Below are positions 30,001-36,000 of a stretch of 64,000 nucleotides of DNA, piece after piece. The stretch's first letter is position 1, and every line of letters begins with the position of its first letter. Source of the stretch: an uncultured Nitrososphaerales archaeon (lineage in GTDB: Archaea > Thermoproteota > Nitrososphaeria > Nitrososphaerales > Nitrososphaeraceae); assembly GCA_963713605.1 (NCBI GenBank), contig CAVQMO010000003.1, positions 224,001 to 288,000 of the forward strand, read 5' to 3'. The position numbers are program-made.

Positions 30001-33000
30001 AATGTGCTAGTGTCATATTACCAATAGCTGTAGCCGTCGATCTCATCTATACCCTGACTGTTATGTTTTATACCACTCTTTATACTTACCAACGCCTGGA
30101 AAAGCACTAACATCATTGATTTGAAAAATCTCTCCCTCCGGCATTGGCATATTAATTTTCTTCATCACTGGCAGTAATCTATTGTTTATAAAATTGTTTA
30201 AATGCTCTTGTGATTCCCAGATATCGGCTACGCAAAAGTTGCCCGAGTCATCAAATGCGCCTGCATGAAATAATGCACCGTTTGGGTGCTGATGTTCCCA
30301 ATCTACTTCTTTTCTTAATTCTTCGTACATTTCTTTTGTTACGGCATTAGTTTTTGGATCGTAACTTTGGCTCTTTTAGCCAGAGCATTTTTCTCTTGGT
30401 ATAGATTTTCTAATAAAAATGTCATGGTGTTAATACTTGCTCTATCTATGATTGCATATGTAGCCAAAGGAATTGCAGGTCTGGCCAATTATTTTGATAT
30501 GTTAACGCAACAGAAGCAAATAGTAACATCTACCGACGTAGCATATTTCCCGGAGTTTAGTATTGAATCAGTTGGAAGTCAGATTAACCTAGTATATCAA
30601 ATTGCTTCTACTATTGCATATATTCTCACATGGATTGCTACGGTCAAGATGCTATATCCGTATATCAAGAAATTGGGTAAGATCAAGTTCTGGATTATTA
30701 TGAGCGTGGCTATGGTTTATTATCTTATTAACTATCCACTCTTCGTCTTGGGTTACTTTAACCCATCAGAAGTAGATGCGATGACAAAAATTCTGATCTT
30801 TTCAATGGCCGGGATTTTGTCAGGAATCATATTTGGAGCAGCATTCTTGGCTGTGGCCAGAACGTTGCGAAAAGACAGTATTCTCAGAAATCATATGATA
30901 ATTGCGGCGTATGGTTTTCTTCTATTTTATATATCCGGATCTGCTTGGGCTGCACAGGCTGCATATCCACCATTTGCGATTGTTTCCGTCTCTCTTATTG
31001 GATTATCTTGCTATTTAATATATACTGGTCTTTACTCATCGGCTGTTACTGTTTCGCAAGATACTACATTGCGTCTGTCCATTAAAAAATCAATTACTGA
31101 ACAGGCAAATTTTTTGCATGGTATGGGGTCGGCTCATATGGAACAAGAACTACAATCAACAGTTATGAAGATCGCAAAGAAACATTCAGATGTGTTGACG
31201 GAGAAGACTGGAGTTGAATCTTCAATGACAGAAACTGACATCAAAGAGTACATGGCTATGGTGTTGAGTGAGATCCACAAGTCATGACATAGATATCTTT
31301 GTCATTATAACTTACTACTATTCTCTACAAGTACGCTAGATCAAGACTAATCAAGAAAATGTCGAATAAACAACAGCTATTTATTGTCAGGCCTGGTATG
31401 GATGTTTGGCTATGCGCTAGTTCTAATAGAAAAGATATCAGATATAAGTGAGAGCCCGATATTGCTTAATGCAGATAAACGTAATTCTCGCTCTTGCTAC
31501 CAAATGAATATCAAATATATCGCAATAGTCGCGGTAATAGCAGCAATACTAGTTGGAACAACAGCAATAACAACAGAGAACGCATTCGCAACCAAATATC
31601 ACAAAAATCAAGCAATCAGTCAAACCAATGCATGTGGCAATGGTGAATTACCATTGAATGTCGGATGTCAAAACATTGACTCGCAAATTCAGGGTGACGA
31701 AAACGTTGTATCATTAGCAGCAGACCAAGTATTTCCAGAAATAGAAGAAGAAGAAGAAGAAAAACCAGTACCGGGCTAACCAACTTATCTTTTTTTATCC
31801 GGTACGCAGTAATAGCGCATTAATTAGTAGAGTATACAGGAGCAATTTCATCATCAACATCTAACTGAAAAAATATCAGATATAAGTCAGAGCCCGAACT
31901 TGCTCAATGCAGATAAGCACATCTGTCGTTAAACTTCCGAATGAATACTAAATACATGTTCATTGTAGCAGCAATTGCAGTCACTCTCATTGGTGCAACA
32001 GCACTTGCAACAGAAGATGCATTTGCCACTAAGAAGAGAGAATACAATCAAGCAACAGCGCAAGCAAATGCTTGTGGAAATGGTGAACTGCCATTGAATG
32101 TCTTCTGTCAAAACATCGGTTCACAAGTTCAGGGCGATGAAAACGCAGTAGCAGCTACTGGCAGCCAAAGCGCAGATTAAGAACAAATCAACTTCTCTTT
32201 CTTTTTTTTGTCTTTCATATTGTTAACATAATTGTAATAATATTGTATATATATTATAACTGAAAAATTAGCCGTCAGTCATACGCATACGATATATAAC
32301 ATGGCTACTGTTCTCCATGCCCGAAATGCATTTATTATTTGCTAGCGCTAAGATATTTCATTGTTTCAAATATATGACAATATTTTACGTATATTTAATG
32401 GAACATAAATCTGATTTAGTCTAGTGTTTAAAATTTCTAAAAATAGAAAAAGAAGATGTTAATTACAATTGGTAGCAATATGAACACTAGATACTTAGTA
32501 ATCATAGCAACGATAACGGTAATGTTAGTTGGCGCTACGGCACTTGCTACAACTGATAACGTATTCGCTGGAAAGAAGAAATACGAAAAGAGTCAAGCAG
32601 CATCTCAAGTCAATGAATGTGGTAATGGTGAGCTGCCATTGAATGTTTTCTGTCAAAATCTGTTATCACAAATCCAGGGTGACGGAAATGCTGCAAATAT
32701 AATCGGAGTACAATAACAATCGCCTACATCTAAAGTACTTTTTTATTTTCAAAATAACAAGATTATATTAATCAAATACCCATAAGTAAGACACATATAA
32801 CAACTCTCGTAAACAATTCGAGATTACGTGCCATAACAAATATGCGATTTCTGTAATCTATTGTTTTTTCTTAACTGAGATAACTTCAAGTCGTAAACTA
32901 TTACTGTTAGAGTAATGAAATATGGAGCGATAGCTGTATTCGGTGCAATTTTGCTCGTAATGGTTGCTATGTCTTTCATGTCTCCGCATATAATATTAGC

Positions 33001-36000
33001 AAGTAGCTATGAAAAGAGTCAGGTTCTATCACAAACCAACGAATGTGGTAATTATTGGTTTCCAGTGAATGTTATATGCTCCAATTTGAATTCCCAAGTT
33101 CAGGGTGACGAAAATAATGTTGCAATGACAACAGCAACCAATGAAAAAATTGAACCTGACACAAATTTTGGTCCGCCGTTTCCCTAGAAGTAGGTTAGCT
33201 ATAACCAGCTTGAATTATTAGTTCATATTTGGCCGGAGAGTGTTTGGCTATGCGTTAGTCTATTGGCTAGTTGGTCTAGTATAGAATTAGATTGTGAAGT
33301 TACCCTGAACTTCAACAGCTAAATTGGATATCACTCAATAGGCTTGATGGTGCTATTATATCTAATAATATTATTATATCTAACTAGATGGCTAGCTGAC
33401 AGAGAGTTCTATGTGTAAACCTCTCTTTGTCTATTAACTGATAACTCTGCAGCAGTTTCTCTTGCTGTGTTTGCGATGGTTTTTGCATTATCCACATTTA
33501 TTCTTGAAAGCTCTTTTGTATATCGTTGTGCTCGTTCGAATGCGTTTCCCAAAGCTTCAATATTTCCAAATAAGATGTCATTGCCTATTCTTACTGATGC
33601 TGAGAGGTTTTCAGCAATATTGTTGACTGACCTGACATATGTCTCTGCCGGTACTCTCGGAGAAAACCAGTAATCATGTAATCTATTAGCATTTTCATAA
33701 TACGGAGCTGCAGAGTTAATGAGCGAATCAACTACTGACTTTTGAGCTTCAATATAATCTTCTACCATTTTTCCAGTCGATTCTAATACTTGTTCTTGAT
33801 AGTGAGTAACTACAGTTGTGAATTGTGGAATTTGAGTTCTTGCTTCGTCTATTGATTTTCTTACATTCTCTTTTGTTTCATCTAATGATTTGTGAAATGT
33901 GCGTTGAAAATCTTGTACTGCTACTAGTTGTTGTTGTTGCTGTTGTCCAACTTTTTGTAGAGTTTGGGCTGCATCGTTTTTATCTCTTATACTTTTGGCT
34001 TCTTCAGCGACTCTTTGAGTGTCTTCAATAGCTTTAACTTGTTCTGTTTTGGACATATAAGATCTTCTCACGATAGTTATATAAACACTGGCAATTTAAT
34101 GGAATTTGTCCCCATATTAGGTAACATCAGGCATATTGCGGGATTAATACGGCGTACGTTCTAATATTATCAGTTAATAGATGCGGTATCTGTAGCCTGG
34201 TTGGTCATAATGCATTAGATATATTCAACATCGAGATTGTTCTGTGATTCTTCAATAAATATCAATTCAGTCTTGCCATAAGAATGAATTCTTTCATCGG
34301 TGATCATGGGAATAAGATCAACAGGTAAAGAAACAAAAGCCGTATAACTAAATTTGTGCACACTGCATACCTAGGCTGTATCAAAATAATGAATAACTAA
34401 CTATTTCCATTCAAAATCCGCTTTTATCTCACGTTCCCAGTACATATCTTGTTTTTCTAAGCGGTAATACTTGATATCCTCGGGTCCGGGATAACCAGGT
34501 AAGTTTGGATGTCTGGTTACGATGTGGCGCCCCTATCCGTCGACTGAGCCAAAGTCTTTACTTTCACAATAGTAACGACATGGTGGAAAATTACTCGTAT
34601 TTACCATCTCTCGTTGTAACTAAAATAGCTTTTATAGAATTGCTTTTAATTTCACAATAAAGTCGTGCCTAAATAGCTTGGTCGTTATAGCATCACATAC
34701 GAGTCCGGGCGATACTGAGCATAATCAAATATGTACTATTTTGGAAATTCTTTACGACAATATACCTTCATTATATGTTCCAAGATTTGGAATACTGTAT
34801 TAGGCCATAGCTTAGTGCTTGATGGTAACAAAAGAGTAAGAGAGCTGACATGTGGAGGGTACTATATTTTACAATAAAAGAATAGGTAACTTAAATACAT
34901 CTATAAGATTTCTCAAAAAAATCTCAGGAAGTCATGTTGCGGATTCATAGAGTTAAGCACAAGATTCATATATTTAGAGGTAGATGGTAGTATGCCAAGG
35001 ATAAAAGGAACTAGTATTTAAGACATGTCAGATAAGAGAGACGAGTCTTCTGAAGAGGATGAGGCAGATCAAGATTCAGATAATCATCGAAGTCATGGAA
35101 ATCAGCAAGGAAGAGGAAACCCATCGACAGTCAATGAATCCTTAGAAAAAGCTTTCAAGATTAGGTGTAACACGTTAGATGAGGGTACGATGGCTTTTAT
35201 TCATTGGCTGAACTCTACTCATAAGAAGTCTACCATCGAAAATCCATTTGTCGTCAAAGACTTTCAGAATGATAAGTGTACAGTGTTATGGGATAGCTCA
35301 GTACAAGCAGAAGTGCATATTGATACAAAAGATGGAGGACCCGATGTGTCAGTATTGCAAGGCAGATGATTGTGCTCATGTTGGTTTCACAATATGTCTG
35401 GAGCAACTTCATGGTAGAGGTGAAACGTTGGAAAGCATTGAAGCTGAAACAGAGGATGAAAAGTACTGCCGTAAACAAAGAGAACCAAACCGCCACAGGT
35501 TTGAGCTATTGTCTATTCATCGGTCTTATCGCTTCCTATATATTCTTCTCCTAATCTTTCTTTTTTGAATGCATTAGCTACCCGCCAACCAAATTTTATG
35601 ATATAAGGCGTCATGAATGTTGTTATTACAGTCATTGTACCAACCATAGGTAACAGAAATGAACTTGTTACCCCAACATCCGAACCTCCTTTTGCTGCAA
35701 CAAGAGCTGAGCTCTCCTCCAGAAGAAGATAGGCCAAAACCAGTTCTTAAAGATGTAACAATGCTAAGGCCTTGAGATCTTGATGCAAGAAATACTGTGA
35801 AGAATTTTGAAGATATGGAGATTCCAACCAAGACTAATGCGGGTACTATGAATGCAGGTAGCAACGTAATATTCATTAAAGCTCCAACCGACACGAAGAA
35901 TAGTGCAGCGAACATATCCCTTATAGGACTGGCCAGCACTTTTGTAACAGAATGTACCTTTGATTCTGCAATCAACACGCCAGCAAAGAATGCGCCTGCA

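Follow-up and report, generated by a model that had tools for sequence, protein, structure and literature searches.

Introduction

Several described systems combine small secreted domains in short and long proteins. Chaplins of Streptomyces (PF03777), the products of many paralogous genes, are small Sec-exported proteins whose two-cysteine domain measures about 50 residues; they form a surface layer and occur as short single-domain forms and as long forms with additional parts. LysM, SLH and dockerin are small modules that sit at protein termini, singly or in tandem, and are joined by flexible linkers to varied extracellular cargo, and secreted proteins consisting only of the domain are known for LysM. 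Sec-dependent class II and two-peptide bacteriocins, halocins and sulfolobicins are small exported peptides whose genes form adjacent pairs; some of them have one disulfide. Curli repeats (CsgA, PF07012) provide Q/N/G/S-rich motifs in a secreted protein; curli-type secretion genes are not known from archaea.

The proteins described here, dozens in number, stem from an uncultured ammonia-oxidising soil archaeon of the Nitrososphaeraceae. They resemble chaplins, by analogy only, in that a small secreted two-cysteine domain exists in short and long forms. However, the chaplin domain is hydrophobic, while the module studied here is polar, with an abundance of Q, N, S, D and E, and is archaeal and limited to one clade; PF03777 was not listed by hmmscan at E≤10. 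With LysM, SLH and dockerin the module shares a length of about 45 residues, an N- or C-terminal position, single or tandem occurrence and many unrelated cargo domains, but it is not homologous to them, has a predicted disulfide loop and is encoded far more often per genome, and in a larger share, by genes for the module only (about 35 intact). Motifs of the Q-x-G-x-N-A-x..Q type are reminiscent of curli, and so is the failure of AlphaFold2 to fold the secreted protein as one unit. Unlike in curli, the motif spacing is different and tandem modules are set apart by long flexible linkers rather than stacked, and PF07012 was not listed by hmmscan at E≤10 either. Judged from its sequence, the core of these proteins is a previously undescribed modular extracellular domain of about 45 residues, and the tiny exported proteins look more like parts of the cell surface or matrix than like peptide weapons or signals.

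An array of four genes for secreted mini-proteins

The window, i.e., the whole stretch of 64,000 nucleotides analysed, holds four genuine head-to-tail genes on the plus strand (31504-33187), delimited by ORF and alignment, whose products of 78-91 aa each consist of a Sec-type signal peptide and a core of about 45 aa with a single C-x10-C loop. The product of g1 (31504-31779, subtype P, 91 aa) has a signal peptide ending in AFA, followed by the core domain and a tail (...ADQVFPEIEEEEEEKPVPG). It is followed by g2 (31941-32180, subtype S, 79 aa) with the tail ...GSQSAD and by g3 (32480-32716, subtype V, 78 aa), for which the start codon was picked via the family alignment. The latter represents the minimal form, the protein stopping at the final residue of the core (...NIIGVQ). 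The product of the last gene, g4 (32915-33187, subtype W, 90 aa), again has a signal peptide of its own, together with the loop CGNYWFPVNVIC and a tail ending in ...NFGPPFP. An earlier note had reported a four-gene array here, and all four genes were found, while the end it had placed at 33148 falls 39 nt short of the end of g4. A second locus in the window lies on the minus strand and comprises a subtype P copy (2116-2373, 86 aa) and, downstream of it, a subtype V copy (1735-1968, 78 aa).

The module follows the consensus Y-E-K-N-Q-A-x-S-Q-x-N-x-C-G-N-G-x-L-P-L-N-V-x-C-Q-N-x-x-S-Q-I-Q-G-D-x-N-A-V-x5-Q. Residues previously described as invariant are conserved in the new alignments too, and the two invariant cysteines most likely close the 10-residue loop by a predicted disulfide. 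Pre-sequences of at least 20 aa with a hydrophobic 12-mer are present in 36 of 37 copies, in accordance with the Sec-type signal peptide proposed before, and K or R occurs among the first eight residues in 32 of 37. The mature parts are mostly acidic, with a net charge ≤0 in 34 of 37. Two other types of precursor were considered and rejected. Class III prepilin peptidase sites consist of [KR][GAS] and a hydrophobic residue and are located before the hydrophobic stretch; inspection by eye, without a predictor, revealed M-N-T-K-Y-(hydrophobic) and a small-x-small site (AFA, VFA, AYA) after the hydrophobic stretch, which does not fit an archaeal type IV pilin-like signal. RiPP precursors would have a leader without Sec features and an adjacent modifying enzyme; here, Sec features are the rule (36/37) and no recurrent enzyme gene is adjacent.

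The four window proteins did not match any Pfam or NCBIfam family above chance (best E 0.065), which bears out the earlier statement for Pfam, and a relative of the module was not found in the PDB. AlphaFold2 gave no confident fold for mature g3 (pLDDT 52.7 with 105 aligned sequences), and in a protein with tandem modules these scored a pLDDT of about 25, compared with about 90 for its Ig-like domain. In view of these low scores a defined binding domain is at most putative, and the module may be disordered when alone.

Each gene is an autonomous transcription unit

All four genes are preceded by a two-box element on the plus strand. Upstream of g1 (31422-31478, repeat D3), box 1 is the near-palindrome ATATCAGATAT and box 2 is TTGCTTAATGCAGATAA; we take this element for a promoter that may or may not include an operator. 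The D3 copy in front of g2 (31860-31916) is 88% identical to that of g1, and diverged copies precede g3 (32400-32452, ATAAATCTGATTTAG ... CTAAAAATAGAAAAAG) and g4 (32836-32884, AAATATGCGATTTCTG ... CTTAACTGAGATAAC). The two boxes stand at a constant distance 5' of the family's genes, in the archaeon's own genome as well. In relatives, box 1 occurs within 160 nt upstream in 92 of 120 genes versus 6% of random windows, and 75 of these 92 genes have it 66-72 nt before the ATG. Eleven nucleotides past the g1 stop lies a T7 run (31790-31796, +), which we infer to be an archaeal oligo-T terminator; a T8 run (32202-32209, +) and a T6 run (32739-32744, +) are found past the stops of g2 and g3. Runs of T5 or longer within 50 nt past the stop characterize 24 of 37 family genes versus 103 of 1000 control ORFs. 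The transcription unit is autonomous and conserved for each gene, and the approximately 35 autonomous mini-protein genes probably share regulation.

Copies of the 19-nt direct repeat TGTTTGGCTATGCGCTAGT (repeat D4) flank the g1-g4 array on both sides. The left copy (31403-31421, +) is part of an extended conserved region 5' of first-in-array genes. The right copy (33241-33259, +), identical in 18 of 19 positions, is located 54 nt past g4 and has no gene behind it. Three matches to the repeat occur in the window versus 0.06 expected.

Both g1 and g2 are present in soil and rhizosphere metatranscriptome contigs. RNA-library contigs from four studies cover the coding region of g1 or g2 at ≥99% identity and nothing intergenic, although such contigs are no proof of transcription, transcript ends or expression level. 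For g1, the matches span 31516-31776 (contig X16, two mismatches), 31564-31773 (X15, one mismatch) and 31575-31748 (X17, no mismatch), and for g2 they span 32001-32171 (X20, no mismatch). Further RNA-library pieces match the cores of paralogs.

Family size, subtypes, spread and selection

Three HMM iterations over the full set of 38,886 stop-to-stop ORFs (≥40 aa) detected 54 domains, which belong to 53 ORFs and are spread over 8 of the 15 contigs of the genome, and a cross-genome search yielded 50 matches in the same genome. These roughly 50 places on eight contigs are in line with the about 44 gene copies counted before. A usable start and the Cys loop are present in 37 of the 53 ORFs, and 35 are short forms (≤100 aa) with N-x-C-x10-C; ORFs outside the short-form set are long, divergent, N-terminally truncated or broken copies. 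The HMM search recovered every one of the five arrays already named, and two more pairs were found (C3:225735-226427, window 1735-2427, and C12:168581-169483).

The subtypes P, S, V and W were encountered repeatedly, across several MAGs and within arrays, just as arrays of distinct subtypes had been described, and they cluster on the tree (26 label changes versus 80.6 when shuffled). There are at least four old subtypes, standing in heterotypic arrays, and W comes last in 18 of the 19 arrays with a W gene. The module was detected in each of 10 further genomes from the genus and in 7 of 7 genomes of a second genus, but 200 other genomes from the class gave no match at E≤1e-3. It is restricted to some uncultured Nitrososphaeraceae genera; no cultured member of the genus is among the named records. 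The earlier claim of absence elsewhere in the class held, while the extent within the family is wider than had been thought.

When pooled over the 35 short copies, pN and pS amount to 0.21 and 0.74 (saturated) for the core, 0.35 and 0.61 for the signal peptide and 0.54 and 0.62 for the tail. The tails vary and evolve fastest of the three regions. Five subtype V copies in the genome are near-identical, all are kept, and they show pN of 0.04-0.09 at pS of 0.2-0.6 (pN/pS 0.09-0.21). The core is under purifying selection, and the paralogs are old, with synonymous sites saturated between them.

The module in larger secreted proteins

In at least 150 longer proteins the module resides directly behind the signal peptide and is followed by a Pro-rich linker and by domains resembling adhesins or enzymes. 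A search limited to proteins of 161-2000 aa produced 196 matches among 8000 scored candidates. Of 370 relatives, a non-random set gathered by three targeted searches, 161 have at least 160 aa, and in 150 of these the module begins within the first 110 aa. The long forms are built from signal peptide, module, QTFP(E/S)(V/I), a Pro/Glu/Thr-rich linker and cargo, with at least five Pro in the 30 aa after the module in 87 of the 150 long relatives. Ig-like, CARDB, TSP3, VWA, CHRD, beta-propeller and collagen-like parts serve as cargo. Pfam partner domains were identified in 19 of 50 long forms, namely MG2-like (seven, all under Pfam's cut-off), TSP_3 (four) and CARDB (two), together with lactonase/YncE, NHL, SGL/arylesterase, VWA, CHRD, BNR and a C-terminal TM tag. 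The module also appears as two to four tandem copies with Gly/Ser/Asn linkers between them and, in such tandem forms, internally or C-terminally. In the archaeon's own genome it forms the head of two collagen-like proteins and of one protein with 217 aa, and it stands behind an Ig-like domain in one further protein, and a genome of another genus has a single copy inside a 540-aa secreted repeat protein.

Varied cargo, a position at either end, tandem copies with linkers and stand-alone forms are what is expected of a modular attachment domain. Because only 13 of the 150 long relatives have a second hydrophobic 19-mer, the module is usually the sole candidate anchor. We tentatively favour the view, to which we assign a likelihood just short of even, that the module is an attachment or assembly part of the cell envelope or matrix and that the mini-proteins are its bulk components. 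The long forms may also just be released to the medium.

The same architecture lends itself to two further explanations. Signal peptide and module could be cut off as a carrier or pro-domain, comparable to cathelicidin or conotoxin precursors, leaving the variable tail or cargo as the active product; on this view, the mini-proteins would be processed to very short tail peptides. A conserved N-terminal part in front of a C-terminal part of 0 to more than 500 residues, the conserved QTFP(E/S)(V/I) motif at the junction and the fast evolution of the tails agree with this. However, subtype V, which is better conserved and more often repeated than any other subtype, lacks a tail altogether, the tandem internal modules and the C-terminal ones are at odds with a carrier at the N-terminus, and no protease gene recurs nearby. 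We regard a carrier function as improbable. Somewhat less improbable, but still unlikely, is a soluble module that binds a ligand such as a glycan, a mineral surface, Ca2+ or another metal without having a structural role. Proteins made of the handle only would then sequester or mask the ligand, by analogy with fungal LysM-only effectors. Known small binding modules have the same layout (N- or C-terminal, tandem, varied cargo, stand-alone), and the conserved polar residues of the module (N, Q, S, D) could ligate a sugar or cation. This is countered by the lack of homology to known binding modules, the lack of a fold model and the absence of His and Met residues typical of copper sites from the module alignments. 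In addition, ligand binding overlaps with attachment, the sole difference being what is bound.

Neighbouring genes and the question of weapons or signals

The earlier note had interpreted the products as secreted disulfide-loop peptides used against competitors or as signals. Small size, Sec export, the loop and the arrays stood up, and the role as weapon or signal did not, in view of the module's presence in at least 150 large proteins, purifying selection, missing partner genes and the lack of enrichment of kinases. Sec-dependent, bacteriocin-like archaeocins, possibly two-peptide pairs of another subtype and W, would be small and exported with a disulfide-type loop, and many paralogs with variable tails, heterotypic arrays with W last and the location of copies in the genome's more variable contigs would suit them. 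Like class II and two-peptide bacteriocins, the mini-proteins are small exported peptides encoded in adjacent genes. Unlike in bacteriocins, halocins and sulfolobicins, no immunity or transporter partner accompanies them: among 400 neighbouring ORFs clustered from within 6 kb of all copies (~45 loci), there was no recurrent immunity, export or processing gene and no recurring small membrane protein or protease family, and an ABC ATPase family was present at only three loci. The core is strongly conserved rather than diversified despite synonymous saturation, with five near-identical V copies being kept, and it is shared with large multidomain secreted proteins. Moreover, the mature parts are mostly acidic and no bacteriocin family was matched in Pfam or NCBIfam. 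We therefore give little credence to an antimicrobial function. The heterotypic pairs with W last do recall two-peptide bacteriocin loci, and both this and the variable tails count against attachment.

Diffusible pheromones sensed by membrane histidine kinases appear more doubtful still. Five copies have a histidine kinase gene within 5 kb, and the gene for a membrane protein immediately 5' of the array (30367-31287) is part of a family also seen near three other copies; one of these other members (C5:87210-88283) directly precedes a histidine-kinase gene. However, the kinases are not enriched, as 5 of 35 HATPase_c genes are within 5 kb of a copy versus 3.1 expected from random placement (P ~0.2). 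Furthermore, at least 35 signal genes with a conserved core and no matching receptor diversity are implausible, and the domain is present in large proteins as well.

The proposal that the genes ride on mobile elements was not upheld. All seven integrase genes are more than 9 kb from the nearest copy when distances are compared by hand, a TnpB-type gene was not found, only 3 of 10 PolB-like ORF pieces are within 5 kb of a copy, and the local GC content (0.382) resembles the genome-wide value (0.389). Neither integrase nor PolB genes show enrichment around the copies.

Implications for the archaeal cell surface

The genes encode stand-alone copies of an extracellular module. The precursor leaves via the Sec route and is cleaved after the small-x-small site, and the protein freed in this way is mostly acidic and about 55 aa long. 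If the module is an attachment or assembly part, it would act as an association handle that keeps proteins on the cell envelope or in the extracellular matrix, where it would bind either an envelope component or other module copies, and mini-proteins made of the handle only would be abundant bulk parts of that layer, not diffusible toxins or signals.

A further-reaching proposal, possible but with the balance clearly against it, is that the mini-proteins are self-assembling subunits of an as yet unseen extracellular polymer in dominant uncultured soil ammonia oxidisers. Were this true, several subtypes would form a fibre, sheath or amyloid-like coat with W as obligatory partner, and the larger proteins would plug enzymes or adhesins into it via the same N-terminal module. 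Approximately 35 co-regulated genes would then provide an archaeal scaffold for surface display.

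Family size and gene structure

The four genes of the window array stand head to tail on the plus strand, as claimed in the earlier note, and each encodes a protein of 78-91 aa: g1 at 31504-31779 (subtype P, 91 aa), g2 at 31941-32180 (subtype S, 79 aa), g3 at 32480-32716 (subtype V, 78 aa) and g4 at 32915-33187 (subtype W, 90 aa). The end formerly given for the array lies 39 nt short of the stop codon of g4. A 19-nt direct repeat, TGTTTGGCTATGCG(C/T)TAGT, brackets the array at 31403-31421 and 33241-33259, and its motif also occurs upstream of the first gene at seven other family loci. 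No gene follows the right-hand copy, which could be left over from a lost unit or mark a boundary of recombination.

The genome assembly comprises 4.085 Mb in 15 contigs, with the window at C3:224001-288000, and contains archaeal amoA (C10:735668-736216). When a profile was iterated three times against all 38,886 stop-to-stop ORFs of at least 40 aa, 54 domains were found in 53 ORFs on eight contigs; a second profile count gave 50 matches. All previously listed arrays were recovered by the iterated profile, together with two further pairs, one of which occupies the minus strand of the window (1735-2427). Of the family ORFs, 37 combine the cysteine loop with a usable start, and 35 genes qualify as short forms (at most 100 aa, N-x-C-x10-C), consisting of a signal peptide and a core of about 45 residues with or without a tail. 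The rest of the family ORFs comprise long forms, divergent forms and copies that are truncated or broken. The assignment of a Sec-type signal peptide holds, with Sec features in the pre-sequences of 36 of the 37 copies: a lysine or arginine is located near the start in 32, and a hydrophobic stretch is followed by a small-x-small site (AFA, VFA, AYA). The mature part has a median length of 55 aa and is mostly acidic in these 37 copies.

Other genes of the window are also disrupted. The gene for an adenine deaminase/amidohydrolase (47167-48921, plus strand) is spread over three consecutive ORFs, i.e., the N-terminal part of Amidohydro_1, its C-terminal part and Adenine_deam_C, and truncated genes near it encode a luciferase-like fragment (26263-26685) and an ABC ATPase without its first half (38051-38842). 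These split and truncated genes are frameshifts caused by decay or assembly errors, which bears on the 'broken' copies of the family.

The core as a module of larger secreted proteins

The core is not restricted to small proteins. Among 8,000 scored candidates, 196 matches fell into proteins of 161-2000 aa, in which a signal peptide is followed by the 45-residue core, the motif QTFP(E/S)(V/I), a proline-rich linker and then other domains. In one group of long forms, an Ig-like domain precedes one to four core copies that are separated by Gly/Ser/Asn-rich linkers. Among 370 relatives, a set gathered by targeted rather than random sampling, 161 have at least 160 aa; the module starts within the first 110 residues in 150 of these, and in 87 of the 150 the next 30 residues contain five or more prolines. 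Another hydrophobic 19-mer is present in only 13 of the 150 module-headed proteins, and the larger module-bearing proteins thus mostly appear to lack any other anchor.

Scanning 50 long forms with Pfam named a partner domain in 19 and none in the other 31. Seven carry an MG2-like domain, in all cases under Pfam's own cut-off, four TSP_3 and two CARDB; lactonase/YncE, NHL and SGL/arylesterase propellers, VWA, CHRD and a weak BNR match complete the set, and one of the 50 has a C-terminal membrane tag. We also considered a polymorphic-toxin organization, with a conserved N-terminus and a variable C-terminal toxin, and rejected it because the cargo domains resemble adhesins or enzymes and not toxins. 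Archaeal antimicrobial peptides and polymorphic toxins were reportedly surveyed in mBio in 2019.

Long forms of the genome studied here are two collagen-like proteins, one protein of 217 aa, one Ig-like protein carrying a single module and a two-module ORF. The collagen-like proteins (C12:6787-7653 and C5:25328-25804, both on the minus strand of their contigs) consist of GEQGPxGPxG repeats with a divergent module at the head (YSNSQAQSFVNECG...). In the C12 gene, the frame passes from Gly-X-Y repeats to a long S/T/R repeat, suggestive of a frameshift in the repeat DNA.

With the core present behind the signal peptides of longer secreted proteins, the 'peptide' is a protein domain, and the small genes represent its stand-alone form. 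We thus describe an exported, constrained and modular domain with about 35 intact stand-alone genes, which in larger extracellular proteins stands at the head or is repeated.

Selection on core, tail and subtype

Nei-Gojobori counts pooled over the 35 short copies yielded a pS of 0.74 (saturated) and a pN of 0.21 for the core, compared with 0.61 and 0.35 for the signal peptide and 0.62 and 0.54 for the tail. The five copies of subtype V, which ends at the last residue of the core, show a pS of 0.2-0.6 but a pN of just 0.04-0.09, and one pair of this subtype is recent (pS 0.04). For the copies of subtype W, whose window member g4 ends in NFGPPFP, the ratio is 0.31-0.41. The paralogs are old, the core is under purifying selection, and several copies are kept for nearly the same product; this is not diversification. 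An improbable alternative is that the core serves as a carrier from which active tails or cargo are cleaved: tails and varied cargo are present in many members, and constraint rests on the core and extends to the tailless subtype V.

All four subtypes were found again in several MAGs. W is present in 19 of the 36 arrays seen and comes last in 18 of these 19, counts in which loci reached by two routes may figure twice. A tree of 152 short forms, although poorly resolved, requires 26 changes of subtype label, compared with 80.6 for shuffled labels.

A conserved upstream element

The family genes are preceded genome-wide by an element of two conserved boxes, located in the window at 31422-31478, 31860-31916, 32400-32452 and 32836-32884. 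Box 1, (A)ATATCAGAT(A/T)T, is nearly palindromic, and box 2, TTGCTTAATGCAGATAA, follows about 24 nt further on. The distance to the start codon is fixed at 66-72 nt both in this genome and in relatives. Among the 120 genes of relatives with enough upstream DNA, box 1 lies within 160 nt in 92, compared with 6% of random windows; it is situated 66-72 nt before the ATG in 75, and both boxes are present in 85. Next to synonymous sites that are saturated, such conserved non-coding DNA points to a promoter or operator under selection and to common regulation of the genes. The same element also stands before a few genes for secreted proteins outside the family (C3:113120, C5:270591 and C1:565735, all minus strand), and it probably marks a regulon. 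Runs of five or more T within 50 nt after the stop codon were seen for 24 of 37 family genes versus 103 of 1000 control ORFs, and the genes therefore look like autonomous, monocistronic units.

Contigs from RNA libraries of four soil or rhizosphere studies, which prove neither transcription nor its ends or level, match the coding region of g1 over 261 nt with two mismatches, 210 nt with one and 174 nt with none, and that of g2 over 171 nt without mismatch. Other pieces correspond to paralog cores. For g3, g4 and the intergenic DNA, the only cover is a 36-nt piece from the core of a paralog, although contig data cannot show absence. The DNA libraries that hold the sequences derive from soil, rhizosphere and one biofilm metagenome.

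Genomic neighbourhood

The genes had been interpreted as weapons or signals riding on mobile elements, a reading that, if true, would make them the first peptide arsenal in this group of ammonia oxidizers. Among 400 ORFs located up to 6 kb from the copies, clustering revealed no recurrent immunity-like, export or protease gene. The recurrent neighbours are ordinary island genes for histidine kinases, luciferase-like oxidoreductases, sugar dehydrogenases, TFB and NHL/collagen proteins, joined by ABC ATPases at three loci and PolB-like pieces. Of 35 histidine-kinase genes, 5 lie within 5 kb of a copy, against 3.1 expected, which is no enrichment (P about 0.2). None of the seven integrase genes of the genome, whose positions were compared by hand, lies within 9 kb of a copy, no TnpB-type gene was found in the genome, three of ten PolB-like ORF pieces lie within 5 kb of copies, and GC content near copies is 0.382 versus 0.389 genome-wide. 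The weapon, signal and mobile-element parts of the interpretation are thus without support. Bacteriocin-like peptides, with which small size, export and a cysteine loop would agree, are quite unlikely in the face of this neighbour survey; pheromones, for which the kinase genes near some copies might speak, are very improbable given the kinase counts.

Directly upstream of the window array, a polytopic membrane protein of 306 aa without Pfam match is encoded at 30367-31287 (plus strand); its family occurs near three other copies, one member (C5:87210-88283) directly before a histidine-kinase gene, and the protein may be a sensor domain. A gene for a 469-aa family-B DNA polymerase-like protein is represented by ten ORF pieces at about seven places in the genome, in the window at 3087-3701, 5116-6525 and 10116-10859 (minus strand) near an HTH protein, unknown ORFs and a RadA/Rad51-like ATPase. 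These pieces may be remnants of a self-replicating element and are not specifically linked to the small genes. Two more multi-copy families of small proteins without Pfam match cluster near some copies (C1:1154295-1163561, C12:546-2596 and C12:214404-215770), one exported with the common motif ...FTTQAA..S..ARPTNNIVNT.SFYD(V/I)VF(L/V)T..., the other sharing the start MK(R/Q)(V/I)... and the end ...Y.V.NLP. The window also encodes a 629-aa YncE-like beta-propeller repeat protein with a C-terminal membrane helix (27406-29295, plus strand), an RTX calcium-binding repeat protein (44038-44826, minus strand) and a Kelch-repeat protein (13370-14101, plus strand).

Structure prediction and database searches

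In agreement with the family's reported position outside Pfam, neither Pfam nor NCBIfam holds a profile that matches the module. A profile search of the PDB gave two chance-level matches only (E 0.42 and 0.43), the protein atlas only clusters of the same unnamed family, and Rfam nothing at E<=1 for window positions 31000-33600. AlphaFold2 returned no usable fold for mature g3 from 105 aligned sequences (mean pLDDT 52.7, pTM 0.13); for a 464-aa tandem-module protein with eight aligned sequences, the Ig-like domain reached about 90 and the modules about 25. The lack of a confident model for the module, alone or in tandem, would fit either a unit that is disordered until assembled or a small novel disulfide fold. 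A complex of four mature g3 copies scored 0.02 and was returned as 'no answer', which counts neither for nor against self-association.

Full-text literature on secreted small proteins of Nitrososphaeraceae, on matrix or biofilm of ammonia-oxidizing archaea and on Nitrososphaer- archaeocins yielded no paper describing the family. The main text of the source of the TH MAGs (PMC7603488) uses 'secreted', 'signal peptide', 'hypothetical' and 'unknown function' 0 times each; its supplements may list the family as an orthogroup.

Distribution

The full-length profile finds matches in 25 of 101 Nitrososphaeraceae genomes, among them all ten other genomes of the same genus (4-54 matches each) and all seven of a second genus (6-26 each). 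Single genomes of six further genera have one to four matches, and ten genera are without a match. A genome from another genus carries its only copy as one module within a 540-aa secreted repeat protein. The unpublished genome G035, one of the ten from the same genus, gives 24 matches and contributes, via a single locus (L004), three of 124 relatives' genes and one of 36 arrays to the array, upstream-element and tree counts; no conclusion rests on it alone.

A domain-only profile (21 sequences, 46 columns) matched none of 200 other genomes of the class at E<=1e-3, a set made up of 14 genomes from six Nitrososphaeraceae genera and 186 from 13 further families. Among clusters at 50% identity, it matched 506 at E<=1e-3, 259 of them at E<=1e-10. 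Of 5,954 candidate clusters of 42-160 aa at 90% identity, 3,682 matched at E<=1e-3, and the named entries among them are all 'hypothetical protein' from Nitrososphaeraceae MAGs. Apart from one labelled Thermoproteota, all named records carrying the family come from MAGs of uncultured Nitrososphaeraceae or Nitrososphaerales.

Discussion

This is an undescribed family of extracellular domains with an unusual stand-alone expansion in two genera of uncultured soil ammonia oxidizers. Chaplins are many small secreted two-cysteine domains accompanied by long forms, and attachment modules of the LysM, SLH and dockerin type are joined to diverse cargo, repeated in tandem or secreted by themselves. In logic these are the closest analogues, but by sequence the module belongs to none of them (Pfam, NCBIfam and PDB profile scans).

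We tentatively favour, at somewhat less than an even chance, a role as an association handle for cell envelope or matrix. The handle would bind some envelope component or other copies of the module, and mini-proteins consisting of the handle only would be bulk components. A soluble ligand binder, an unlikely alternative, would agree with the occurrence of the core alone, in tandem and at the head of varied cargo, an architecture shared with known small binding modules.

Nitrososphaeraceae are among the main soil nitrifiers, and the lineages carrying the family are known from metagenomes only. The family occupies about 50 places in 4 Mb of genome, numbers more than 3,600 public clusters at 90% identity (506 at 50%) and turns up in RNA libraries from soil and rhizosphere. 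To our knowledge, it has never been named. With it come a new extracellular domain, a marker for two genera and, through the sharply conserved element upstream, a probable regulon. If the module is indeed a unit of attachment or assembly, it would offer a handle on the matrix biology of soil ammonia oxidizers and a set of cargo proteins that would be displayed on their surface.
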